Shown here piece by piece: positions 1 through 10,509 of a stretch of DNA of 10,511 bases. Each line of letters starts with the position of its first letter. Positions within the stretch are counted from its first letter, which is position 1. The notes under the pieces are model-generated. The model ran no database searches, had not been told where the DNA came from, and saw only the letters and a program-made list of their open reading frames with translations. The DNA lies in UHGV virus genome UHGV-0048736, one strand, 5' to 3'. Source of the stretch: a virus. Position numbers and translations under genes: made by a program.

Positions 1-175
1 TGTCAGTTATCATCTTCGGTTACGGTTATCGGCAGAACGCCCTGCCGCTGACAAGAGCTTATTTGCCTGACCAATTTACTCCACATGATAGATAACTATC
101 ATTTATATCATTTAGTTAATTAGTCTTTATTTTTCATTATGTTGCAAATAACAAGCCTGTCAAAAACAGTGATAT

Positions 176-198
176 TAACTACACCATTAACTACACCG
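176..198. repeat. Left copy of boundary direct repeat (putative att core)
   Basis: TTAACTACACCATTAACTACACCG here versus TTAACTACACCATTGACTACACCG at 10486-10509 (23/24). Each copy is internally a tandem (A/G)ACTACACC duplication. Confidence 0.6.
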
Positions 199-203
199 CT
201 TCA

Positions 204-230
204 CGAACAATATCGAACAACCGCGAACAA
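204..230. repeat. Three CGAACAA direct repeats with exact 10-bp phasing, next to the left att repeat (possible recombinase or accessory-protein binding sites)
   Basis: CGAACAA at 204-210, 214-220 and 224-230, one helical turn apart, starting 6 bp after the att repeat. Confidence 0.5.
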
Positions 231-517
231 AGATCAACACGCTTTAATCATTATCATTTTCCGGCTATCCGTCATGAAGCTAGTGGATGATCTGCGTGGT
301 GATTTCCACCATTCAGAGCAGGGGCGGTCATCATGCCCATGCCATAACAAAAACCCCATATTCGTGGTTTTTCTGTGTTGTGGCTATTCTGCCGTTGCCG
401 TGCTGGTGGATATTTCCGTTATGGGGATCACCATATCGGCATCATGCCCACCAGCCAGCGCAATTTTGCGCTTTTCTTTAAGTTCAGCAAGTTACCGCGC
501 CGGATTACGCCAATGGC

Positions 518-700
518 TGTTTCCGAAAGAATCAACGGGTTAGGCCTTAATGGGCTGCGTGGTAATTATCAGCATCCAGAATATGACGGGTTATGTTTCC
601 GACCTCCTCAATTTGAGGTTCCCGAAAATATCAACGGGTTAGGCTGGTTTCCCCGATGTTCGCCGCTGGCGAATTTCGAAAATATCAACCAGTTACCGCC
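518..700. repeat. Degenerate direct repeats of about 25 bp, three copies (TTCCGAAA-ATCAACGGGTTAGGC family)
   Basis: tgtttccgaaagaatcaacgggttaggc (518-545), gttcccgaaaatatcaacgggttaggc (618-644), tttcgaaaatatcaaccagttaccgc (674-699); a related CAAGTTACCGCGCC at 487-500. No supported ORF on either strand across 200-690. Confidence 0.5.
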
Positions 701-974
701 GCAACCGCTCCGGCTTCTTCCAGTGGTACGTAATTTTCTCCGTTTCCCGATACAGTGCCACGCGGCGATTGTAGGCCAGCATTTCAAGAACGCGGATCCG
801 TATGTTGCGCATATCCACATCATTAAGCTGGATACCATCACGGCGCATCACCTCAGCAACAACACGCGCATAATTTTCGGCTGTCACGCTGTCCGGCTGC
901 GTGGCCTGTTCGTCAGTCTGCTGGCTGATTCCACCAGCACGGCGGATTAATCCCAGTATTTCGGCTTCTGTCAT
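693..974 (-). CDS. Hypothetical protein, 93 aa
   Basis: ORF with ATG start and GGGTG-like Shine-Dalgarno upstream; no motif I can recognise. Lies just beyond the left cos copy. Confidence 0.5.
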   Translation of the reverse strand: MTEAEILGLIRRAGGISQQTDEQATQPDSVTAENYARVVAEVMRRDGIQLNDVDMRNIRIRVLEMLAYNRRVALYRETEKITYHWKKPERLRR

Positions 975-1008
975 TGTGCACCCATCGTTCTGATTGTCTG
1001 GTGTCGTC

Positions 1009-1225
1009 GGGTCCTTCCTGGAATTATGGACCCGTTACGGGGCGGCGACCTCGCGGTTTTTATCTGTTTATGAAAATTTTTCTGGAAAAAGCATGTCGGT
1101 ACTTCTCGAACATAACTATTTGTTTTTAAATAGATACACAATAAAAAGAAACGACACGGTAATCATCTAAAATGGCGATTTATGACGCTTTCATGTCGTT
1201 TCTCAGTTTTGTTCAATAATTGCGC
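1009..1225 (+). other. Lambda-type cos site, left copy, plus orientation: upstream hairpin, cosN and a cosB-like region with R-site-like motifs
   Basis: Exact lambda cohesive-end 12-mer GGGCGGCGACCT at 1040-1051 followed by CGCGGTTTTT...TTTATGAAAATTTTTCTGG, closely resembling the lambda left end as I recall it. R-site-like motifs: CATGTCGGTACTTCTC (about 1083-1098), GAAACGACACGG (1149-1160) and inverted CATGTCGTTTC (1191-1201). GGGTCC...GGACCC hairpin at 1009-1033. Confidence 0.75.
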
Positions 1226-1230
1226 GTCTG

Positions 1231-1773
1231 TTACTCGCCTTTCTTCTGTAGCAACTTTTCCGGTACGTTTCCGGTTGTTTCTTTCAAGTAATCAGCCAGT
1301 ATCTGTGGGAGGTTGTCGGCAACTCTGGCACTGGCATTACAGGCTTTAACCACTTCCCTTTTAAGCCTATCCAGCATGGCGGGGGTAATCTGTGGGAAGC
1401 TCCTTTGCATAGTAAGCGGGAGGCTGTCCATGATTGATGAAATCTGACTCGCCAGCTTTGAAAGCGCGTACAGGCAAAACTCAGTATCAATCACGTCACC
1501 GCGATCGCGCTCGTTTTTAAGTTCCTGCGCCTCCGCCTGTGCTGTCAGTAATCTGATCCTGACTCGTAAGAGTTCATCATCATCAATATCGCCTTTGTCG
1601 TTTGTAAGCTGGCTAATTGCATTGTTAACCCTATTGTCTATCACGCTGGCAACATCGTAAAACGCCTCACGGCCTTTACGTTCAACGGGAGTCACTCCCC
1701 ACTTGTCGAACGCTGTCGCACTTACACGGCAGCTTTTCGCCATGTTTTTTTTGTTCATCAGGTGCGATTTCAT
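1231..1773 (-). CDS. Terminase small subunit, lambda Nu1-like
   Basis: 180 aa (lambda Nu1 is 181 aa). LLTAQAEAQELKNERDRGDVIDTEFCLYALSKLASQISSIMDSLPLTMQRSFP matches the recalled Nu1 segment LTRAQADAQELKNARDSAEVVETAFCTFVLSRIAGEIASILDGLPLSVQRRFP. N-terminal region (KK..A......W...G.P...GKG.E..YD.A.VI) is consistent with the Nu1 DNA-binding domain. True start may be one of the in-frame ATGs at 1758 or 1743; no clear Shine-Dalgarno at any of them. Confidence 0.85.
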   Translation of the reverse strand: MKSHLMNKKNMAKSCRVSATAFDKWGVTPVERKGREAFYDVASVIDNRVNNAISQLTNDKGDIDDDELLRVRIRLLTAQAEAQELKNERDRGDVIDTEFCLYALSKLASQISSIMDSLPLTMQRSFPQITPAMLDRLKREVVKACNASARVADNLPQILADYLKETTGNVPEKLLQKKGE

Positions 1774-1775
1774 TA

Positions 1776-1811
1776 ATACACCAACTTAATTACTGCTTCA
1801 GGTTGGTGTAT
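1776..1811. promoter_or_regulatory. Perfect 10-bp inverted repeat ATACACCAAC-N16-GTTGGTGTAT abutting the Nu1-like start codon
   Basis: Arms at 1776-1785 and 1802-1811 are exact reverse complements; located 3 to 38 nt upstream of the start at 1773, between the right cosN copy and the gene. Confidence 0.5.
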
Positions 1812-1866
1812 TGTTTGCATCTTTCCCTTTTCATTCATAAAGATAGAGCAAACAACAAAACCACCA

Positions 1867-1875
1867 CCCCCCCCC
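1867..1875. repeat. Homopolymeric C9 tract (G9 on the coding strand) in the Nu1-like upstream region
   Basis: ccaccaccccccccctg read directly; lies between the right cosN copy and the Nu1-like start. Confidence 0.6.
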
Positions 1876-1896
1876 TGAAAAGGCTCATAAATAGCG

Positions 1897-1948
1897 AAAA
1901 ACCGCGAGGTCGCCGCCCCGTAACGGGTCCATATGCCGGAAAGGACCC
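1897..1948 (-). other. Second cosN copy, inverted orientation, collinear with the Nu1-like gene
   Basis: Positions 1897-1933 are the exact reverse complement of 1025-1061 (37/37). cosN GGGCGGCGACCT is on the minus strand at 1907-1918, followed on the minus strand by CGCTATTTATGA as in lambda and then divergent sequence. GGGTCC...GGACCC hairpin conserved at 1926-1948 with a different loop. Confidence 0.75.
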
Positions 1949-1950
1949 AT

Positions 1951-1974
1951 AAAAAAAAGCCGGATTTCTCCGGC
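1951..1974 (-). terminator. Rho-independent terminator after the 137-aa gene
   Basis: GCCGGA-tttc-TCCGGC hairpin (1959-1974) preceded on the plus strand by A8 (1951-1958), giving hairpin plus U-run on the minus transcript; 7 nt past the stop at 1981. Confidence 0.7.
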
Positions 1975-1980
1975 CTTGTC

Positions 1981-2394
1981 TCAGATGGTTTTCAGTATGC
2001 GATCGATGTCGCCGTCATCGCCCTGGTTTCTGCCATCGTATGCCATGCCAGCTGATACGGCTTGCGGGCTGTGCATGTCCATAAAGTTTTCAAAGGCTGC
2101 GGTAAGTTCCGGCGCAACCTTCGGACGTTCCTGCTCTATGGTCATGCTAAGGATGCTTTTAGCCGTACCAACATCGATACAAGGCACGTTTGCCATTGCA
2201 CGTAACAGCGGCTGATAGTCGCCAGATTCATCAAGCGCCATAATCGCATCAGCGCGCGGCTTGTCCTGCTCTTCCAGTTTGTTAAGTTGATATATGGCCT
2301 CGTAGGTTGATAACCCTCTGTCAGCCATTGCCCGCGCTTCGGCTTTAAATTTACTCGCCAGCGGTAGCGTCATGATGCTTTCATTCGTTGCCAT
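1981..2394 (-). CDS. Hypothetical head-module protein, 137 aa
   Basis: ORF with strong Shine-Dalgarno (AGGGGGAACG before ATG), 12 nt after the D-like gene; acidic C-terminal region. Function not assignable from sequence. Confidence 0.6.
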   Translation of the reverse strand: MATNESIMTLPLASKFKAEARAMADRGLSTYEAIYQLNKLEEQDKPRADAIMALDESGDYQPLLRAMANVPCIDVGTAKSILSMTIEQERPKVAPELTAAFENFMDMHSPQAVSAGMAYDGRNQGDDGDIDRILKTI

Positions 2395-2406
2395 CGTTCC
2401 CCCTGC

Positions 2407-2742
2407 TTATCGGGCCAGCGGCTGAACGGATACGCCAGAACCCGCAAAGGCGGCGCATTTTTTCGCATCGGTGTCGACGCTCTCAGGCCAGTTAACGGCG
2501 GCAATATTGAATATCCCCGTCTTGTAACACTGTGCTGATTTCTGCTTTGACGTGTCCACAGGATACGAAGTCAGATAAACAGCCTTGCCAGATTCCTGAC
2601 CATCCCACGGCTTAAACTCGCCATTGTCCGCCAGCATCAGCGGGGTAAATTCCTGAATAACGCCAGCATCAGCGGCAAAATGTACCAGCGTCGTGGCGAC
2701 CTGCTGACTGCCTGCAAATAACTCAATGTATGGAGTGTCCAT
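2407..2742 (-). CDS. Head decoration protein, lambda gpD-like
   Basis: 111 aa (gpD is 110 aa). TPLMLADNGEFKPWDG versus recalled gpD TPLMLDTSSRKLVAWDG; CYKTGIF..NWPE...AKKCAAFAG versus FYKSGTF..LWPE...TKKRTAFAG. GGGGG Shine-Dalgarno. Confidence 0.85.
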   Translation of the reverse strand: MDTPYIELFAGSQQVATTLVHFAADAGVIQEFTPLMLADNGEFKPWDGQESGKAVYLTSYPVDTSKQKSAQCYKTGIFNIAAVNWPESVDTDAKKCAAFAGSGVSVQPLAR

Positions 2743-2753
2743 AGAATCCCCCG

Positions 2754-3809
2754 TTAAGCAATTTTGACGGTAACAAATTTGCGAATATCTGCCGGAACCG
2801 GCTGCGGTGCGCTGTGCGTCTGCACGTACTCAATCGCCGGATCGCCGTCCTCAATCCAGTTTTTCGGGTAAAACATGTTTTGCGTTGCGCCCGTTCTTAC
2901 TGCGTCCTGATCCATAATCGCACCATAGGCCACCAGCCCTTTATTGTTGGTGTTGCCCAGGACAAGCAAATCAGGCTCAAGGAAATATTTTTCTGTGCCG
3001 TCGCTGTCGGCGTATTTGCCGGAATAGACGATAAGGGCAATATCGCCCAGATAGCCTTTAAAGCTCACCACTTCGCCCAGGTTTTTACAGGCCAGCTCTA
3101 CGGCGGACTCTGAACCACGGGAAAGATCGTACAGCTCACGGAATTTTTTAAAGCTGCGTAACGTGCGCCATACCTCAGCGCCCATAATCATGACGTTTGC
3201 GGGGCAACCAGCCTGATCAGCATAAAGCTCGATGTCATAGATTGGATCGTGTGTTTCCTTATCTGCCTCTGACCACTTTTTACCCGGTCCCTGTCTGGCG
3301 ATGTTTTTACTTGGGATCTTCCAGTCTATTTCATAGCGTTCTATGCCTTCGCCCTCAATGATGTTTTTTCCGGTCGTTATCGCATTCACCGCCAGCCATT
3401 CCACGCGCGCTTTAATGGCGTTTATCTGGCGGCGCATGTTGCCAGTAATCAGGCGCATACGGCGGTAGGTAGGGTCGTTAAGCTGTGCTGGATCTTCTCC
3501 AGCCATGCGCATGATGGTTTTTGTTGGATCGATTTCGTGCTTTGGCTTCATGTAGCCAGGTTTGATTGTGCTGGTTTCGTACCCTTTATCGCGCTGAACC
3601 TGGCTACCCACCATAGGCGAACAAAACGCCGACATGGTGACTTCTTCAATGTCCAGGGTATCCAGCATGATGTTTTGCGTGTTGAATGTCGCCACGTTCG
3701 GGAAAAACAGCGTAGTAAACAGAGGGCTGAATTTAAAATCCGCAATATCCCCGCGATTCAGGTACATGAAAAGCTGGTTAGTGTTAAGTGCCGTTGCTTT
3801 GCCTGCCAT
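2754..3809 (-). CDS. Major capsid protein, lambda gpE-like
   Basis: 351 aa (gpE is 341 aa). FKFSPLFTTLFFP versus gpE FKFDPLFLRLFF; KPGYMKPKHEI versus TPGYVKPKHEV; DPTYRRMRLI versus DPAYRRRRII; YPKNWIEDGDPA versus YPKNWVTTGDPA; C-terminal FVTVKIA versus FVSVQLA. GGGGGTG Shine-Dalgarno. Confidence 0.9.
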   Translation of the reverse strand: MAGKATALNTNQLFMYLNRGDIADFKFSPLFTTLFFPNVATFNTQNIMLDTLDIEEVTMSAFCSPMVGSQVQRDKGYETSTIKPGYMKPKHEIDPTKTIMRMAGEDPAQLNDPTYRRMRLITGNMRRQINAIKARVEWLAVNAITTGKNIIEGEGIERYEIDWKIPSKNIARQGPGKKWSEADKETHDPIYDIELYADQAGCPANVMIMGAEVWRTLRSFKKFRELYDLSRGSESAVELACKNLGEVVSFKGYLGDIALIVYSGKYADSDGTEKYFLEPDLLVLGNTNNKGLVAYGAIMDQDAVRTGATQNMFYPKNWIEDGDPAIEYVQTHSAPQPVPADIRKFVTVKIA

Positions 3810-4015
3810 TATTCACCCCCATAATTTTTATGCATCCCAAGCGCCGCAAGTAAATAAGAGCGTACAAGTGAACCTATCGACGGCTCCGGCGTCATCAGCG
3901 GATCCAGTCCAGCCGCTACGCCAGCCTCATAGTTTTTTTTGTGGCGCTGCTTGAGCACCTCCACGATTTCGGGGCTTATGTACACCGAAACACCACCTTT
4001 TTTCTCTTCAGCCAT
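3809..4015 (-). CDS. Hypothetical small protein, 68 aa, translationally coupled to the capsid gene
   Basis: Its TAA stop overlaps the gpE-like ATG by one nucleotide (TAATG); first gene of the head operon. Confidence 0.55.
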   Translation of the reverse strand: MAEEKKGGVSVYISPEIVEVLKQRHKKNYEAGVAAGLDPLMTPEPSIGSLVRSYLLAALGMHKNYGGE

Positions 4016-4050
4016 AGTAAGAAATTCCTCTTCGACTTAAAAAATCATAA

Positions 4051-4139
4051 CTGGATGTTCATCCAGCTCTGATTATAATCAGGATTGCATTTTGTGCAAT
4101 GATATTGAGTTGTGTTGCAAATTATGAAATGATGATCCC
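4051..4139 (-). promoter_or_regulatory. Putative promoter/operator region of the head operon, with clustered palindromes
   Basis: CTGGATG-tt-CATCCAG (4051-4066); perfect 14-bp palindrome CTGATTATAATCAG (4069-4082) containing TATAAT; ATTGCA-N5-TGCAAT (4084-4100); ATGATC-cc-GATCAT (about 4126-4139). All lie 35-125 bp upstream of the operon's first start codon. Confidence 0.4.
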
Positions 4140-4179
4140 GATCATGTGTGTCAGTGCACCAAAAAGCCTCATATGCAAA

Positions 4180-4217
4180 AGCCCGATAAGCCACCTCTGA
4201 CCTTATCGGGCTTTTTT
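4180..4217 (+). terminator. Hairpin plus T-run, plus-strand (possibly bidirectional) terminator
   Basis: AGCCCGATAAG (4180-4190) pairs with CTTATCGGGCT (4202-4212) around an 11-nt loop, followed by T6 and preceded by A4. No plus-strand ORF upstream. Confidence 0.5.
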
Positions 4218-4392
4218 ATCTGCCTGCAAAGATGTCGAACAAAAATTAACCACAACCATCATCTTTTTTGCATCAAAACAATTAAAAACAATAAATTACG
4301 CTCATGATGATGATGACGATAAAATCACAAAAATGCGCTTTTTTCCGCGCCTCCCGCCCCGTGTTCAGGCCCACCCCGCCAGGAGGACCCGT

Positions 4393-4415
4393 AAAAAAGC
4401 CGGATTGCTCCGGCT
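4393..4415 (-). terminator. Rho-independent terminator after ssb
   Basis: AGCCGGA-ttgc-TCCGGCT hairpin preceded on the plus strand by A6 (4393-4398); 16 nt past the ssb stop. Near-identical to the 1951-1974 terminator. Confidence 0.7.
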
Positions 4416-4430
4416 TCTGTCACTCGTCGC

Positions 4431-4853
4431 TTAAAACGGTATGTTATCCCCGTACGGATCATCATTCCCCGCCTGTTGTTTTGCCCTGTTCAGCGCGTCA
4501 GTAGCCTGGCCCTGTTGACCTTTTTTGCCGCCCAGTCGCGCCGTTCGCGCACTGATTACACTGTCTGCGATAACCTGCCAGCCCTGCCGCGTTTCTCCGT
4601 TCTGCCCAGTCCACTGGCTGATCTGCATGTTACCCGCCACGCTCAGGAGTTCACCCTTGCGGTGCCTTTCCAGTGCTTCGGCCTGTCTGCCAAATGCCAG
4701 GACGGATAACCACATCGTCGCCGTTCCGTCATCTGCCTGGCTGCACGGAAGGGGGACCGCCATACGCGCCAGCGTCATCGGTGTGCCCTTGCTGGTCTGT
4801 TTTACCTGCGGGTCGTCCACCAGCCGCCCGTAAGCGGCTATCTGTGCTGTCAT
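4431..4853 (-). CDS. ssb: Single-stranded DNA-binding protein
   Basis: 140 aa. OB-fold pattern alignable to E. coli SSB (TMWLSVLAFGRQAEALERHRKGELLSVAGNMQISQWTGQNGETR versus [44 protein letters not shown]); Gly/Gln-rich linker; C-terminal tail DDPYGDNIPF like SSB DFDDDIPF. ATGA start/stop overlap with the upstream 85-aa ORF. Confidence 0.8.
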   Translation of the reverse strand: MTAQIAAYGRLVDDPQVKQTSKGTPMTLARMAVPLPCSQADDGTATMWLSVLAFGRQAEALERHRKGELLSVAGNMQISQWTGQNGETRQGWQVIADSVISARTARLGGKKGQQGQATDALNRAKQQAGNDDPYGDNIPF

Positions 4854-5107
4854 GATTCCACCTCTCCGGTTTTAACGTTGATGGTTGTTACCTGTTCCGC
4901 TTCGGCAATCTCCCATTCTGTCAGCGTGGCAAAGTTTGCCGCCGCTGTGGTCATGAATGCGCTTATCAGGTCGGGATGTGCTTTCGCGTATCCTTCCCCC
5001 GTGTTGCGGTCGATGATTTTTATCGCCACTCTCAGCCAGTGCTCTGTAAGGTCAATGGCGCGGTTATGCTGCTTCTTCTGATTATTAAGTTTTCCTGATG
5101 TGCGCAT
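4850..5107 (-). CDS. Hypothetical protein, 85 aa
   Basis: ORF with GAGGGGG Shine-Dalgarno, coupled to ssb by ATGA overlap, immediately downstream of the iteron region. Confidence 0.55.
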   Translation of the reverse strand: MRTSGKLNNQKKQHNRAIDLTEHWLRVAIKIIDRNTGEGYAKAHPDLISAFMTTAAANFATLTEWEIAEAEQVTTINVKTGEVES

Positions 5108-5154
5108 TTTTATTTTTACCCCCTCGTTTAAAAAGTTTTGAGTTGTGCCTCCCC

Positions 5155-5383
5155 TTGTCTACCTTATCAACCTTACTGGCCACCATGCCAGTAATGGCGC
5201 GGCTTTCAGTGGGGTAGAGTGCTTTTATCCACTATCTACCCCGTATCTACCTCCCTGTCTGATTCAGGTAAAATCAGGTAGAGAGGGTAGATAGTAGGTA
5301 GACAGTAAAAAAAGGCTGTCTACCCAAGTTAATGTACTGAATTAAATGTATTTTTCTTTACTCTGGTAGACAGGGTAGACAGC
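5155..5383. repeat. Iteron array with AT-rich spacer: putative replication origin
   Basis: About ten copies of GGTAGA(C/T/G)AG in both orientations (5155-5164, 5213-5221, 5232-5240, 5243-5251, 5277-5285, 5286-5294, 5297-5305, 5316-5325, 5365-5373, 5374-5382). AT-rich stretch at 5326-5360. Directly downstream of the primase/helicase gene. Confidence 0.65.
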
Positions 5384-5395
5384 CATTGCAACAAA

Positions 5396-7144
5396 TTATA
5401 AAAACGCGTCGCAATCGTCTGTTGTTATTGCGTTAGTCTGCGTTACTCCTTTAACTTTCCGCGTAATATATTCATGTCCGTAAACTTTCGCGGCTGGCTT
5501 CATAGCCTTGCCAAAGTCATTTACGTTTAGCGGTTTGCTCCTGCCTGCGTACGCCATAAACGCCAGATAGACGCGGTAAAGGCTGTTTCTGGTCGTGTAC
5601 TTCACTGAATCGCCACCGCCGCCCATCATCAGGCCGCGTGCTTCCTCCAGAAAATTCAGGAACTGGCAAAACTCAATAACCGGATCCGTCTGTTGCTTTA
5701 TTGCCAGTGCTTCATCACCGTCACGCTGTTCAATGAGTAAAGCCCGTGCCTTTTCAGGGTCGGCAAAGTTCGCCAGCAAGCGGCGGATAATGACAGGGAT
5801 TTCAGCCGCGATCTTTTCCGGTAGCTCCCTGTCTTTTTCTGCCTCGCTTACGATGTTATCGAACCGGAATATCACCCGACGACGTGCCACACCTCCGGCC
5901 CGTTCGGTGAATATCATCGGATTGTTATTGGTTGCCAGCACCACCGCCCTGATTACCGCCGTAAAACGCTTTTCATATTTCGGGTTAATTTCCACGGGGT
6001 CGCCGCCCGTGATTTTCTTGATGCCCGTTCCTTCGCCTGTATATTTCGGCTGGTCTGCCAGGACGATAAGACGACTCCCGACAACCTGCGCACGCCCACC
6101 AGCATCATCAAGCGATGTCATTTCAGCGCTTACCGTGTTTTGTTTCCCTGCCAGAAGGCTGGCTATGTGTGTGAATGTACTTTTACCGCTCCCGCCGTCT
6201 CCGGTGGCCTCAATAAACATCTGCCAGTCGTACCGGTTCGCCATAATCATGTACAGCGCGGCACATATACGCATCATCTTGCGCGGGTCTTTTCCGGCTG
6301 CGTGCTCAAGCCATTTATGAAAGTTTGGCGCGTTATCGCGGATGTTCTCCCCGGGTGCTGGTGGCGTGTACTCAATGCCGTTGTGCGTGGTGATCCAGTT
6401 CTCCGGCGTGTGCGGGGAAAATTCCCCCGTTTTCAGGTCAAGCGCACCATTGGCGAACGGCAGCAAATCGCCGGACGGCTCGCCCATTGGTTCGGCAATA
6501 ACTTTTAACGCTTCCACGGCGTTATTGATTACGCGCTTGCTGAAAGTGGCCCTGTGCTCTGAATAGATCGCCACCATTTCGCGGCTCAGCTCCATTGTGC
6601 TGACCGGACACCATACCCCGCCGCGCCATACGTGAACGATTTCACTTTCAGGATGCACACAAACGCCATCAAAGCGCTCGGCAAGCAGCTGCGCACGCTC
6701 ACTGTCTGCCATTTGTGCCAGTTGCGTATTTTTCTGCTCCGGCATGGTAAGCCCTGCGGCAATATTTTCACGCTCAGCATTCAGATAGCGCCGCCAGTTT
6801 TCACACTTCTGGACGTGCATTCCTTCGGGGTAAAAATTTGCGTCCTGAATATCTGCCGCCGCCAGCTTCTGACCAATCTTTTTGGTCTCCACCAAATCCA
6901 GTTCTCCGGCCTGGTACAGCCTTACGCGCTTTTTCCCATCCGGAACAATTTTCAGTGCATCAAGTTCGGCAAGCTGATTTGGCCCAAGCCACACAGGCGG
7001 CACATTATCGCCGGATGCGGGGCCATCCTGCTCCTGCCATTGTTTCGCGTGCGACCAGGCATCACTACCCGCGAAAATAATTACCTCTGTGTCTTTGTGT
7101 TTTATTCCGCGTGGCTGTTTTTTTACGTTCGGTGCCAGTTTCAT
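5396..7144 (-). CDS. Replication protein: primase / SF3 (D5- or P4-alpha-type) helicase
   Basis: 582 aa. Walker A EATGDGGSGKSTF, downstream Walker B-like hydrophobic stretch (RLIVLADQP) and C-terminal region typical of P4-family primase/helicase; N-terminal roughly 250 aa is primase-like. ATGA overlap with the upstream 99-aa gene; CAGGGG Shine-Dalgarno. Confidence 0.9.
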   Translation of the reverse strand: MKLAPNVKKQPRGIKHKDTEVIIFAGSDAWSHAKQWQEQDGPASGDNVPPVWLGPNQLAELDALKIVPDGKKRVRLYQAGELDLVETKKIGQKLAAADIQDANFYPEGMHVQKCENWRRYLNAERENIAAGLTMPEQKNTQLAQMADSERAQLLAERFDGVCVHPESEIVHVWRGGVWCPVSTMELSREMVAIYSEHRATFSKRVINNAVEALKVIAEPMGEPSGDLLPFANGALDLKTGEFSPHTPENWITTHNGIEYTPPAPGENIRDNAPNFHKWLEHAAGKDPRKMMRICAALYMIMANRYDWQMFIEATGDGGSGKSTFTHIASLLAGKQNTVSAEMTSLDDAGGRAQVVGSRLIVLADQPKYTGEGTGIKKITGGDPVEINPKYEKRFTAVIRAVVLATNNNPMIFTERAGGVARRRVIFRFDNIVSEAEKDRELPEKIAAEIPVIIRRLLANFADPEKARALLIEQRDGDEALAIKQQTDPVIEFCQFLNFLEEARGLMMGGGGDSVKYTTRNSLYRVYLAFMAYAGRSKPLNVNDFGKAMKPAAKVYGHEYITRKVKGVTQTNAITTDDCDAFL

Positions 7145-7440
7145 TTTTTACCCCTGAATACGTTAAGCATCTTTTTTATTTCCTGAATATTGGCGCGTGC
7201 TTTCTCCCTGCTGGTTGGTTTACTGCGGGGCGCTGCCTGTACCAGAGAAAAATCACGCCGAAACTGATAAACAGGCATCACGCAATCATATTCGTAGCCT
7301 TCACGACGGTAGGTGATGCGCCGTTCTGCCACGCCTTTAATCGTTACCATGCCGCCATATTTATCGCGGTAAATATCGCCGTTCATAAATTCAGGACGAG
7401 CGGGGCCGCTGGCAGTAACGCCAGAATTTTTATTTTTCAT
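7141..7440 (-). CDS. Hypothetical protein, 99 aa, coupled to the primase gene
   Basis: ORF whose stop overlaps the primase start (ATGA); basic protein, function unknown. Confidence 0.6.
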   Translation of the reverse strand: MKNKNSGVTASGPARPEFMNGDIYRDKYGGMVTIKGVAERRITYRREGYEYDCVMPVYQFRRDFSLVQAAPRSKPTSREKARANIQEIKKMLNVFRGKK

Positions 7441-7445
7441 GTTTT

Positions 7446-7673
7446 TTATTCTCCGGTGTGCTGCGCTTTATTATTCTCGTGAATTGCCATCACTGTATTT
7501 AATTCATTAATAACAGGCGTTAATAGCGTACGCACGGCAGAAAACATCATTGAATCAGATTCATCGCCACTTTCCGGCACATCAATTAACTTAAGTAGTA
7601 ATGCGTCCATTTCCTTTGCGCGGATTAATGCGTTTTCAGAATGAACAAGAACATCAAAGGGTATTTTATGCAT
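7446..7673 (-). CDS. Hypothetical protein, 75 aa
   Basis: ORF with CAGGGGGTGAG Shine-Dalgarno; acidic small protein; 5-nt gap to the next gene. Confidence 0.55.
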   Translation of the reverse strand: MHKIPFDVLVHSENALIRAKEMDALLLKLIDVPESGDESDSMMFSAVRTLLTPVINELNTVMAIHENNKAQHTGE

Positions 7674-7869
7674 GACTCACCCCCTGGCGAATACGGGCAG
7701 CGAATACCATCACGCAGCCATCAGGAGATTGCTGACGCGCTTCCTGTTCGCTGGTGGCCTCAATGGTAATCACGCGCGGTTGTGCAGTGCTCAGGGTGAT
7801 AAAACGCCAGATGTATTTATTCAGGTTGTGCGAGTCCCGCCCTTGCGGGTGTGTGGTATGATTTCTCAT
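7666..7869 (-). CDS. Hypothetical small protein, 67 aa, first gene of the leftward early operon (possibly Icd-like; weak)
   Basis: Taken from the internal ATG at 7869 (GAGG Shine-Dalgarno 6-9 nt upstream) of a spurious 305-aa ORF. The position upstream of the primase mirrors the P4 left operon. The YIWRF...EQEARQ pattern is reminiscent of Icd-like proteins, but that is from memory only. Confidence 0.45.
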   Translation of the reverse strand: MRNHTTHPQGRDSHNLNKYIWRFITLSTAQPRVITIEATSEQEARQQSPDGCVMVFAARIRQGVSHA

Positions 7870-7965
7870 AGCTACCTCGATACTTTCGCTATCGTTGGTG
7901 GTTAGAAGCCCGGTTAGTGTTAGCGCACTGCCGGGTTTCGTCGTTTCTGCACCTTGCGCCAACAA

Positions 7966-8020
7966 GGTGTTGAACACCAATTTAAACCCAGGTGTTAAAC
8001 ACGTCAAGTGTTGAACACTT
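7966..8020. promoter_or_regulatory. Three operator-like palindromes (GTGTT-N-AACAC) in the divergent control region
   Basis: GGTGTT-G-AACACC (7966-7978), GTGTT-A-AACAC (7992-8002), AAGTGTT-G-AACACTT (8006-8020). A possible sigma70 promoter (TTGAAC -35 inside site 3, CATACT -10) faces the plus-strand regulator gene. Confidence 0.6.
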
Positions 8021-8068
8021 ATTTTTTTTCCTGCATACTGCATTTGTTTTTTATGAGGGGTACACCAC

Positions 8069-8248
8069 ATGGCGACAAAAGCAGTAAACGCAAAATCACA
8101 AACCGTTGCGGCAAGGGTTCCGCATGAAGTTATGAACAATGTTGAGGCGGTAAAAATGCCTGGCGAAAGTACGGGGCAATTTGTTACTGCGGCATTAAAA
8201 CGAGAAGTTGAATATCGCCAGCGGCGCAAGGCCAAAGAACCAGAGTAA
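8069..8248 (+). CDS. Small putative DNA-binding regulator, 59 aa (possibly ribbon-helix-helix)
   Basis: Not in the ORF track because it is under 60 aa. ATG at 8069 with GAGGGG Shine-Dalgarno 8 nt upstream; stop TAA at 8246-8248. Translation MATKAVNAKSQTVAARVPHEVMNNVEAVKMPGESTGQFVTAALKREVEYRQRRKAKEPE has a strand-helix-helix-like pattern and a basic tail. Sits immediately downstream of the operator triplet. Confidence 0.6.
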   Translation: MATKAVNAKSQTVAARVPHEVMNNVEAVKMPGESTGQFVTAALKREVEYRQRRKAKEPE

Positions 8249-8290
8249 TCACCATCAGCGCCGTGGTGTAAGGTATTACGGCGCATTGCT

Positions 8291-8479
8291 ATGCAGGACA
8301 ACACAATGACCGATAAAGAATTGACCAAAACATTATCACCGGCACGGAAAAGACGGCGCAGAAAGATAGAGCATGAATCAGAAAGATTCGCGCCATGTGC
8401 TTTTGCCCTTGAGCAATTCCTTAAAGAGTACAGGGAAAAGCGCTCATTGCAGGTATGGCAACGAACTGAACCAGACTGA
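8291..8479 (+). CDS. Hypothetical small protein (62 aa, or 57 aa from the ATG at 8306)
   Basis: ORF downstream of the small regulator gene and upstream of the plus-strand terminator. An AGGA Shine-Dalgarno-like motif favours the 8306 start. Arg-rich, no recognisable motif. Confidence 0.3.
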   Translation: MQDNTMTDKELTKTLSPARKRRRRKIEHESERFAPCAFALEQFLKEYREKRSLQVWQRTEPD

Positions 8480-8546
8480 TTGCATTGCCCACCAGCCGCA
8501 AATGTGGCATTGTTGGTGATGCGTTCAAGTTTAGTGTGTATCCATT

Positions 8547-8573
8547 GGCGACCGCCCCCGGTCGCCTTTGTTT
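8547..8573 (+). terminator. Rho-independent terminator of the rightward regulatory transcript
   Basis: GGCGACC-gccccc-GGTCGCC hairpin (8547-8566) followed by TTTGTTTT. Confidence 0.65.
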
Positions 8574-8593
8574 TATATGTCATATGCTCCCCT

Positions 8594-8803
8594 TTACGCT
8601 GCCTTACCTGAATTAATGCGATCCCGGCTTTTAACCCATTCCATAACCTCGGACAGCAGCCAACCTACAGAACGCCCACCAAGATTACGGCGAGACGGAA
8701 AGCTCCCTTTTTTCTCCAGTTCGTAGCGTGTAGTGCGACACACTCCAGTTAACTTACGACATTCATCCTCACGGATTACGCGATCTTCATTTATTTCACG
8801 CAT
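8594..8803 (-). CDS. alpA: AlpA-family phage transcriptional regulator
   Basis: 69 aa from the internal ATG at 8803 (the 98-aa ORF in the track starts at a GTG inside AT-rich promoter-like sequence). C-terminal half ...RRNLGGRSVGWLLSEVMEWVKSR fits the AlpA-family pattern as I recall it. Located next to the integrase as in P4-like elements and PICIs. Confidence 0.7.
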   Translation of the reverse strand: MREINEDRVIREDECRKLTGVCRTTRYELEKKGSFPSRRNLGGRSVGWLLSEVMEWVKSRDRINSGKAA

Positions 8804-8926
8804 ACAAAAACCTACATAAAAATTACGTATATAAACTTTTCTCTTAGCTGTAGATATATGAGATCGGATATTACTTAGATTCTTTTTCACCTATTAAATT
8901 AAAAACACAACCATGCTAAAGGCTTT

Positions 8927-8957
8927 GTTCGCTAAGGTTCGTAGAAGCTCGTTAGTG
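8927..8957. repeat. Three tandem 10-11-bp repeats (GTTCGCTAAG / GTTCGTAGAAG / CTCGTTAGTG) in the int-alpA intergenic region
   Basis: Read directly; about 125-155 bp upstream of the alpA start. Confidence 0.35.
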
Positions 8958-9183
8958 TTTAAAATCGTGTCACGAGTTTTTAAGCGACGCAACAAAAAAT
9001 GTCGTCATTTGGCATGACACCTGAATTACCTCATTAAAAACAAATAGATAAAACATCAGGTGTTGGAACAATCAAGAAACAGAGAATAAGAACTCAGAAG
9101 AAGACATTTCAATTTTTTTCGATAGTTGACACATATAAAGAGAAGATATTTGCAGATATTCCCCGATATTCTAAGATCTATTC

Positions 9184-9216
9184 ACGGCTGTAATCTCTTA
9201 AAGAAAAAACAGCCGT
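9184..9216. repeat. Inverted repeat ACGGCTGT-N17-ACAGCCGT just 3' of the integrase stop
   Basis: 8-bp perfect arms at 9184-9191 and 9209-9216; no U-run, so not a canonical terminator. Confidence 0.35.
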
Positions 9217-9222
9217 AATTTG

Positions 9223-10461
9223 TCAAGAATTTTGGGGGTAAATTCGCGGGGTCATAACAACGATTTTTTCATCATTGTTCTGGAGAAGCTCGAGACGGTC
9301 TACCCATAGATTAAGAGCATCACGTTTTGCATCAAGGTAGCGGGAGTGGTTATAGACTCGTTGCATCCCTGGCATCTGGTGGGCTGTAAGCTGCTCGACA
9401 ATATGCGGATCCACGCCTAAATCGTTCAGTATGGTTGTAAATGTGTGCCGGATATCGTGTAACGTCCAGGGGGCTTGATTAATTCGTCTGTGCGCTGTTC
9501 TTCCGTACTCTGCTACCGAAGATTGTCCTTTCAGTTCACCAAGCAATAAGCCTGTGTGTCTGTTCTGCTCCACCAGTTGCGTGACGAACGGCAAAATGCT
9601 TTCCGGTATTGGCCTGAATATGGCGACCTTCGTTTTGCTGTGCTCCTTCGGTACTGTCCAGAGCATTTCTTTAAAATCCCACTCCTGCACCTCAGAGCGC
9701 CTTAGCTCAGTGGTACGGCATCCAAAAACAATCAGGAGGCGAATTAGGGCGCTGTAGTATGGCGGGAATATTTTGTCATCCAGGGCGCGGAGTAATTCCC
9801 CAAGCTCCTTATTTGTTAGTACGCGCTCGCTCACTTCTGCTTTTTTTCCCACATCACCGACAACCATATCATCAAGAACGTTGCTGATTGCGTATCGTCG
9901 TTTTCGGCAGTACTTAAGCGCCTGTTTGCATACCTGTAGCAAAAATCCGGCAGATACTGGGCTTCGCTTTGCCATCTGGTCAAAACATGCCAACCAGTGC
10001 CGTAGCTCGCATTTTTCCAACGGCAAAGCGCCAATCTGGCTGATTATGTGTTTATTGATCCGGCTTTTCAGTGATTCGTAGTCAGTGCGCTTTTCCTTTG
10101 CATACGATTCAAGCCAGTAAGTGAGCGCTTCCTTAACTGTCACGGGGGCTAACGCATCCTGTACAGCACGATTAAGCTCATAGCGCGGATTTTTCCCCTC
10201 AGCCAGCCAGGCGCGACACTGTGCTGCTTTTTCCCTGGCTGCTTTCAGGCTCAGATCGGGATAATTGCCCAGTCTCAGACGTTCCGGTGATACCTGCCTA
10301 CCAGTTCCGGCCCTGTAAGTGAAATACCAGGTTAACAGGCCGCTGGTGGAATGTCTTACGCTAAGATTGCCACCGTCATTAAAAAAGGCGTTTTTTGTGG
10401 TTGGTGATCCGCTTAATTTTCGTAAAAGAGTGTCGCTAAGTCTATGAATTGCGCTGCTCAT
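9223..10461 (-). CDS. int: Tyrosine site-specific integrase, P4-type
   Basis: 412 aa. C-terminal catalytic region with HDIRHT (His-x-x-Arg) and a downstream tyrosine (RVYNHSRYL); N-terminal region typical of the P4-integrase arm-binding domain. Start codon 25 nt from the right att repeat. Confidence 0.93.
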   Translation of the reverse strand: MSSAIHRLSDTLLRKLSGSPTTKNAFFNDGGNLSVRHSTSGLLTWYFTYRAGTGRQVSPERLRLGNYPDLSLKAAREKAAQCRAWLAEGKNPRYELNRAVQDALAPVTVKEALTYWLESYAKEKRTDYESLKSRINKHIISQIGALPLEKCELRHWLACFDQMAKRSPVSAGFLLQVCKQALKYCRKRRYAISNVLDDMVVGDVGKKAEVSERVLTNKELGELLRALDDKIFPPYYSALIRLLIVFGCRTTELRRSEVQEWDFKEMLWTVPKEHSKTKVAIFRPIPESILPFVTQLVEQNRHTGLLLGELKGQSSVAEYGRTAHRRINQAPWTLHDIRHTFTTILNDLGVDPHIVEQLTAHQMPGMQRVYNHSRYLDAKRDALNLWVDRLELLQNNDEKIVVMTPRIYPQNS

Positions 10462-10485
10462 GTTTCGCGTTTCCGGTCATCAAAA

Positions 10486-10509
10486 TTAACTACACCATTG
10501 ACTACACCG
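10486..10509. repeat. Right copy of boundary direct repeat (putative att core)
   Basis: TTAACTACACCATTGACTACACCG, 23/24 identical to 176-198. Confidence 0.6.

Follow-up and report, generated by a model that had tools for sequence, protein, structure and literature searches.

A lambda-type head-protein block and a small terminase gene between inverted cos sites in a probable copy of the Escherichia coli island EcCIIHE3034

The core of a phage-inducible chromosomal island (PICI), as defined in SatelliteFinder, comprises an integrase, a regulator, a primase-replicase, a capsid morphogenesis gene, and a small terminase (de Sousa et al. 2023, PMC10085698). Islands containing all five core components constitute Type A, and 97% of Type A islands are in E. 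coli (PMC10085698). A capsid homologue has already been published for the PICIs EcCICFT073 (c1499/c1500), SaPIbov5 (Ccm), and PmCI172. EcCICFT073, the prototype Gram-negative PICI and a member of the Rpp type, was published with two cos sites, of which cos1 is essential and cos2 has no known role. Another E. coli island, EcCIIHE3034, was described as a 10.5-kb element at NC_017628.1 920272-930825 in the cspD-clpS site (Fillol-Salom et al. 2018, ISME J, PMC6092414). It was said to encode the small terminase TerS, and its cat marker was placed between RS04635 and RS04640 (PMC6092414). Here we describe a stretch of 10,511 nucleotides from the virus genome UHGV-0048736, called the window throughout. 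The window very probably constitutes almost all of EcCIIHE3034, a 10.5-kb Gram-negative PICI located between clpS and cspD in strains of extraintestinal pathogenic E. coli (ExPEC).

The window matches the reverse strand of NC_017628.1 at 920406-930916 (E. coli IHE3034) with 100% identity, and the stretch is found at 100% identity in about 36 complete E. coli genomes. Its best match is strain N68, and IHE3034 differs by one base, located in a G tract within the cosB of the first cos site (cosB1). The tract, at window positions 1866-1876, reads GGGGGGGGG in the window (best match N68) and GGGGGGTGG in IHE3034. The window and the published EcCIIHE3034 have the same strain record, cspD-clpS site, attachment (att) core, and 10.5-kb size, and the RS04635-RS04640 marker site falls inside the window. 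The two display no difference of substance, except that the window stops ~134 nt short of the int-proximal end. A preliminary description of the window, made from the sequence alone, had considered the family possibly undescribed. The element and its family were already known, having been described in 2018, and they fall within the standard PICI definition. In this respect the finding adds little, because a published satellite family has been rediscovered. A search of the later literature on EcCIIHE3034, EcCI18098, c1499, or 3BQW returned nothing past the 2018 paper.

By gene order and protein identity, EcCIIHE3034 and EcCICFT073 are sister islands; where the latter has rppA, the former has a Nu1-type terS of its own. 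The genes follow the same order in the two islands, which also share the arm-type 12-mers, an iteron origin, and a pair of inverted cos sites. The corresponding proteins share 94.9% (major capsid protein E), 99.1% (decoration protein D, which is c1500 in EcCICFT073), 99.3% (the 137-residue protein h137), 91.6% (the primase/replicase Pri-Rep), and 77% (integrase) sequence identity. The islands differ in the gene located between the cos repeats, which is rppA in EcCICFT073 and terS in EcCIIHE3034. In addition, the integrase of EcCICFT073 uses another bacterial attachment site (attB), roxA-phoQ, and EcCICFT073 possesses a PerC-family gene that is absent in EcCIIHE3034.

EcCIIHE3034 contains five of the five core components of Type A and zero of the forbidden ones, an assignment made by matching the published component list. 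The genomic features of Gram-negative PICIs are all present: an integrase gene with a duplicated core, AlpA near int, a primase with its origin, a capsid gene, and TerS with cos. The main genes are all encoded on the minus strand, as are the genes given below unless a plus strand is stated. Transcription runs unidirectionally away from int, and the element size falls within the range of roughly 8-15 kb for PICIs. The tyrosine integrase (9223-10461) matches PF00589, phrog_1, and, with its N-terminal part, the arm-binding domain PF13356. The AlpA-family regulator (8594-8803, with the start codon taken from RefSeq) matches PF05930 with an E-value of 4.8e-16. The D5-type primase/replicase (5396-7144) is composed of D5_N (PF08706), DUF5906 (PF19263), and Pox_D5 (PF03288) domains, and the single-stranded DNA-binding protein SSB (4431-4853) matches PF00436. 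Each of these domain matches confirms a gene named in the preliminary description, namely integrase, AlpA, primase/helicase, and SSB. The iteron origin named there is also borne out. Nine GGTAGAYAG iterons at 5155-5382, directly downstream of the primase gene, form two sets flanking an A-rich stretch, the same layout as in published PICI origins. The motif has 15 matches window-wide, compared with 2.0 expected.

Portal, protease, large terminase (TerL), and tail genes had been reported as missing, and indeed none of the window open reading frames (ORFs) matched a portal, protease, TerL, tail, or lysis protein in Pfam, PHROG, and NCBIfam. No model in these three collections matched any ORF as a holin, head-tail connector, or adaptor, and no ORF matched Psu, Sid, or Delta in Pfam and PHROGs. 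Capsid-forming PICIs (cf-PICIs) such as EcCIEDL933 resemble EcCIIHE3034 in encoding their own major capsid protein and TerS, and some have the int-alpA-pri left arm. However, cf-PICIs also contain genes for portal, protease, head-tail connectors, HNH, and TerL in ~15 kb, and EcCIIHE3034 contains none of these genes. P4-like satellites are characterized by a psu-delta-sid operon, epsilon, and an alpha primase, but only an integrase, AlpA, and a D5-type primase are in common with EcCIIHE3034. Rpp-type islands encode Rpp, which retargets the TerS of the helper, whereas EcCIIHE3034 has a full-length Nu1-family terS between its cos sites.

In a lambdoid prophage, the head module is contiguous with TerL, portal, protease, tail, lysis, and immunity genes, an arrangement that is not found here. 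In the true prophage of APEC O1, cos is followed by Nu1-A-W-B-C-D-E, in contrast to EcCIIHE3034. Relative to lambda, EcCIIHE3034 contains four of ~10 head genes in reversed order (E-D-Nu3 then cos-Nu1), two inverted cos sites, and satellite-specific protein lineages. Its proteins are 43% (E), 36% (D), and 35% (TerS, relative to Nu1) identical to those of lambda, Nu3 is related via an intermediate, and cosN is identical. The gene content, the flanking core genes, and 80 loci in IMG/VR support the earlier proposal that the element is a discrete satellite depending on a cos-type lambdoid helper. Judging from its genes, the satellite would have to take portal, protease, TerL, and tails from such a helper.

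The ends of the element were located by aligning both IHE3034 junctions to the empty cspD-clpS site of K-12. An 18-bp att core is present at both junctions and as a single copy in the empty site. The duplicated core has the sequence ATGATA(G/A)ATAACTATCAT. The core on the clpS side, ATGATAGATAACTATCAT, lies at 85-102. The second core, ATGATAAATAACTATCAT, lies ~120 nt past the window end, at window coordinate 10628-10645 (22628-22645 in the IHE3034 locus L001). Host sequence runs up to ATGATAGATAACTATCAT and resumes at ATGATAAATAACTATCAT, and the element is 10,543 bp long between the cores. The mapped core and coordinates agree with the published att sequence ATGATAGTTAT (PMC6092414). In IHE3034, the element is flanked by clpS/clpA on one side and yljB/cspD/macB on the other. 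Portal, protease, gpA, and tail genes contiguous with the module, which the preliminary description had named as the mark of an ordinary prophage, are not what lies outside. Beyond clpS, IHE3034 has a type I-F CRISPR-Cas system with a csy2 pseudogene (L001 126-11649), beside a frameshifted clpA.

The element had previously been bounded by two 25-nt direct repeats at 174-198 and 10485-10509, which are identical at 24 of 25 positions. Given the positions of the att cores, these repeats are inside the element and are not its ends. Each repeat consists of the 12-mer ATTRACTACACC twice in tandem. The first pair (174-198, plus strand) contains two copies of ATTAACTACACC, and the second (10485-10509, plus strand) is located 24 nt upstream of the int start codon. 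The 12-mer pair is not in the empty K-12 site. It is present inside both ends of EcCICFT073 and of an O157:H7 element, both of which occupy a different attB (roxA-phoQ). Thus, the pair belongs to the element, since it recurs in related elements with different attB. In related PICIs, the pairs lie at 7885-7908 and 19104-19127 (L006) and at 8176-8199 and 19153-19176 (L005), and one pair is always ~23 nt upstream of int. Their position, their conservation, and the PF13356 domain of the integrase suggest that the tandem 12-mers are probably arm-type integrase binding sites.

TerS (1231-1773) consists of 180 residues and belongs to the Nu1 family, as proposed earlier and confirmed by a match to PF07471 (E-value 2.3e-23). 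It also matches phrog_57 (3e-53). The best phage match of TerS is in N15, with 46% identity, and no PDB entry matches it at an E-value of 0.01 or below. The lambda cosN sequence GGGCGGCGACCTCGC is present in the window as previously noted, but in two inverted cos sites (1025-1080, plus strand, and 1933-1878, minus strand) rather than one. The cos1 site (1774-1948, minus strand) is composed of cosQ/cosN (core 1918-1904) and then an element-specific cosB directly upstream of terS, which is the canonical lambda arrangement. The cos2 site (1025-1230, plus strand) is composed of cosQ/cosN and a phage-like cosB. It is inverted with respect to cos1 and points at the 3′ end of terS. The cosB of cos1 differs from the cosB of both cos2 and the prophage. 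Window positions 1034-1127 share ~90% identity with the cos that lies upstream of the Nu1 to E genes in lambdoid prophages, for example in APEC O1, and R-site-like elements are common to cos2 and the prophage cos. Taken with its cosB-like flank (1034-1230), cos2 likewise shows ~90% identity to the prophage stretch at L008 7001-7200. We read cos2 as the counterpart of EcCICFT073 cos2. It copies the cos of resident-type lambdoid prophages and may provide a handle for the terminase of the helper itself.

Within cosB1, a perfect 11-nt inverted repeat (1775-1785 and 1802-1812, AATACACCAAC...GTTGGTGTATT) abuts the terS start codon. The repeat could be a pair of R sites for TerS, or a hairpin for translational or transcriptional control.

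When EcCIIHE3034 is aligned with EcCICFT073, homology is lost at 1087 and comes back at 1877, and the sequences at 1087-1876 are non-homologous. The exchanged unit is composed of cosB2, then terS or rppA, then cosB1. In the W619 element, which occupies the same att site as EcCIIHE3034, the terS cassette is 88% nucleotide-identical to the window, while the capsid genes are only ~65% nucleotide-identical. The inverted pair of cos sites is found in 25 of the 31 IMG/VR loci with enough downstream sequence. These observations suggest that packaging specificity is exchanged as a cassette bounded by the inverted cos sites. The cos sites look like recombination joints, because the segment in which the terS and rppA islands differ starts and ends exactly at the inverted repeats. 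Matches to terS-like DNA elsewhere in E. coli were considered as helper prophages and rejected, and the one inspected is another PICI at the same site.

The head-protein block is built from four genes. The 68-residue conserved protein h68 (3809-4015) matches phrog_3255, and its gene overlaps the start of E. E (2754-3809) is a 351-residue major capsid protein of the gpE family with an HK97 fold (PF03864, E-value 5.8e-50). It shares 43-46% identity with gpE across lambda, phage 21, and Gifsy-1, and ~95% identity with the crystal structure PDB 3BQW, entitled ‘putative capsid protein of prophage’. A contig scan with E as the query found no relative. D (2407-2742) is a head decoration protein of the gpD family with 111 residues (PF02924, 1.3e-17). 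The two Pfam matches confirm the gpE-like capsid and gpD-like decoration genes noted earlier. The genes in the earlier list are real, but the list left out the ORF at 1981-2394. The accompanying premise that PICI-like satellites have no major capsid gene is mistaken, because a capsid morphogenesis gene is a SatelliteFinder core component (PMC10085698); EcCICFT073, SaPIbov5, and PmCI172 have homologues.

The ORF at 1981-2394 encodes h137, which profile and intermediate matches relate to the scaffolding domain found in lambda Nu3 and the C terminus of gpC. It matches the C terminus of PHROG 53 (‘head maturation protease’) with an E-value of 9e-9. In hhalign, its residues 47-121 pair with positions 414-487 of a gpC-like S49 peptidase encoded by a lambdoid prophage (probability 95%, E-value 3.6e-8). 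In BLASTP searches, h137 matches the 195-residue protein P0041 (E-value 3e-11), which in turn matches lambda Nu3 (E-value 2e-16). Direct comparison of h137 with lambda Nu3 and gpC by BLASTP and hhalign was not significant, and the match to gpC is weak. The relationship to Nu3 is thus drawn via the intermediate P0041 or the prophage gpC. The AlphaFold model of h137 is all-helical and of low confidence, with a predicted local distance difference test (pLDDT) score of 47. An exhaustive search of representatives found only 10 relatives. On these matches, h137 is assigned as a Nu3-family scaffold homologue. Some database entries name it a ‘head-tail connector’, a label without NCBIfam or Pfam support; the Nu3 and gpC C-terminal family was matched instead. 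Because h137 matches the Nu3 family, the block can be described as h68, a capsid protein, a decoration protein, and a scaffold homologue. A terminator-like hairpin with a 9-bp stem and a following T run, identified as a consensus match, lies between the Nu3-like gene and cos1 (1956-1977, minus strand).

The capsid and packaging module is widespread. It is present in 494 of 5426 complete E. coli genomes, counted as those with at least 80% of window 1000-4020. In a sample of 80 IMG/VR loci carrying a related E, h68 is found in 80, D in 79, h137 in 74, terS in 38, and rppA in 20, and homologues of lambda A (TerL), W, and B (portal) are found in 0 of the 80. Comparison of E with its EcCICFT073 counterpart gives a ratio of non-synonymous to synonymous substitution rates (dN/dS) of 0.125, from 50 synonymous and 26 non-synonymous differences. 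The dN/dS values for D and h137 are 0.15 and 0.07, respectively. These low ratios indicate that the head block of E, D, and h137 is kept by purifying selection. In the W619 element, E and D are only 54% identical to those of the window, with dN/dS values of 0.23 and 0.14. The W619 integrase is 99.8% identical, and an AlpA-like helix-turn-helix gene (PF05930) takes the place of h137 (L007 9717-11503). At the level of sequence, W619 shows modular reassortment of capsid blocks among PICIs. Phage homologues are all <60% identical, reaching a maximum of 46% for E and 46% for TerS (phage N15). The E, D, and TerS lineages are, by these comparisons, old and satellite-specific.

A life cycle can be proposed for EcCIIHE3034, in part from experiments on EcCICFT073. 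First, a lambdoid helper would switch on alpA, as those experiments suggest. Second, Int would cut the element out at its 18-bp core, with the tandem ATTAACTACACC arm sites probably directing the reaction, and Pri-Rep would then replicate it from the iteron origin, again by extension from EcCICFT073. Third, the element TerS would bind the element-specific cosB of cos1 and recruit the gpA-type TerL of the helper to the lambda-type cosN. Fourth, concatemers would enter heads built with the helper portal and protease, which would then be joined to helper tails. The cos2 site may permit packaging by the terminase of the helper itself. For the h68-E-D-Nu3-like block, the most likely predicted role is an addition to, or a modification of, the head shell.

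Several points weigh against this scheme. The binding of TerS to cosB1 and the recruitment of TerL by TerS are proposed by analogy, and the assignment of the 12-mers as arm sites derives from their position, their conservation, and the integrase domain. The contribution of E and D to heads is unproven, as the homologues in EcCICFT073 can be deleted without a change in transfer or interference. In addition, when IHE3034 with the marked element was induced with mitomycin C, transfer amounted to <1 to 40 colony-forming units (CFU), and no helper was identified (PMC6092414). EcCICFT073, by comparison, transfers at high frequency (PMC6092414). The mobility of EcCIIHE3034 is unproven, because transfer was this low and no helper is known.

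The preliminary description had also suggested that the element uses its E homologue to make smaller capsids. This mechanism finds no support, and in the nearest relative the evidence contradicts it. When EcCICFT073 is mobilized with lambda as the helper, all packaged DNA is phage-sized, and deletion of c1499 (E) or c1500 (D) causes no change in lambda interference or in transfer by resident prophages.

The same experiments bear on a related explanation, in which EcCIIHE3034 is a partly capsid-forming satellite whose own E, D, and Nu3-like scaffold form satellite shells, possibly small, on the portal of its natural helper. The four-gene block would then be a working shell and scaffold kit for satellite heads, possibly with a smaller T number, on a stolen portal. 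A scaffold homologue, a capsid protein, and a decoration protein make a coherent set. The set is under purifying selection and belongs to old satellite lineages: no phage homologue reaches 60% identity, and E and D of two PICI lineages share only 54%. Moreover, the 10.5-kb genome is about a quarter of the lambda genome, and PmCI172, which also contains a capsid homologue, makes small heads (PMC6092414). However, EcCICFT073, with E 95% and D 99% identical, is packaged with lambda as phage-sized DNA, and the c1499/c1500 deletions leave transfer by resident prophages and interference with lambda as before, which a review reports as well. We therefore regard a working kit of this sort as possible but unlikely.

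Another explanation assigns the E/D/Nu3-like block to interference or defence, in which its products co-assemble with or titrate lambdoid head components and so poison capsid assembly. PICIs commonly interfere with their helpers via capsid assembly, and a capsid homologue, Ccm, is already known to block phage in SaPIbov5. A block that is conserved yet dispensable for transfer would also fit such a role. On the other hand, deletion of c1499/c1500 restored no lambda plaques on EcCICFT073 cells, although RppA may have masked an effect, and the explanation appears improbable. That the locus is a decayed fragment of an ordinary lambdoid prophage is scarcely credible: E, D, the Nu3-like protein, Nu1, and cos are all of lambda families, but core genes lie directly on both sides, the order E-D-Nu3-cos-Nu1 together with the AlpA, primase, and iteron module is of the PICI type, the phage homologues all fall below 60% identity, the compact architecture recurs, with neither TerL nor portal, in 494 genomes and 80 IMG/VR loci, and the genes are under purifying selection.

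The remaining genes of the helper-dependent satellite are small. The regulatory region contains a YlcI/YnfO-family gene (8069-8248, plus strand), the sole annotated complete plus-strand gene there. It is followed on the minus strand by three small early genes, namely one for an Icd-like cell-division inhibitor (7666-7869), identified by annotation and family models, a 75-residue ORF (7446-7673), and one for a DUF4222 protein (7141-7440). A match to the antitoxin RNA SymR at 7870-7942 (plus strand) scores 33 bits, below the Rfam gathering score of 61, with an E-value of 0.003. Beyond this below-threshold match, Rfam returned nothing on the window. The SymR-like stretch adjoins the Icd-like gene in antisense orientation. 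It may encode an antisense RNA that regulates icd, as happens in P1 and P4, but the match may also be due to chance.

Between the origin and SSB lies a gene for an 85-residue hypothetical protein (4850-5107) that is 100% identical to its EcCICFT073 counterpart. An AT-rich gap of 415 bp (4016-4430) contains hairpins, such as one at 4170-4222. It corresponds to an accessory-gene slot of the family that is empty here and holds the PerC-family gene in the EcCICFT073 and O157 elements. The last gene of the element encodes the 93-residue conserved protein h93 (693-974; phrog_1561), which is 91.4% identical to its EcCICFT073 counterpart. An identification of h93 as Rpp was rejected, as a PDB sequence search found no relative although Rpp structures are deposited there. 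The terminal, mostly non-coding region after this gene contains three direct repeats of ~27 nt resembling GTTYCCGAAARAATCAACGGGTTAGGC (519-545, 618-644, and 672-698). The repeat region (519-698) is conserved in EcCICFT073.

Handles for experiments come from three annotations: h137 as a Nu3-like scaffold homologue, the exchange of terS for rppA within cos boundaries, and the likeness of cos2 to a prophage cos. Why these PICIs contain two cos sites is a question left by the literature and of moderate interest. The remaining value of the finding lies in the question of what the conserved capsid block does, that is, why at least ~9% of complete E. coli genomes retain, in a PICI and under purifying selection, a lambda-type set of capsid, decoration, and scaffold-like genes although the deletions tested so far had no phenotype. 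If the block were a working shell and scaffold kit, the common E. coli PICIs would be an evolutionary intermediate between classical PICIs and cf-PICIs.

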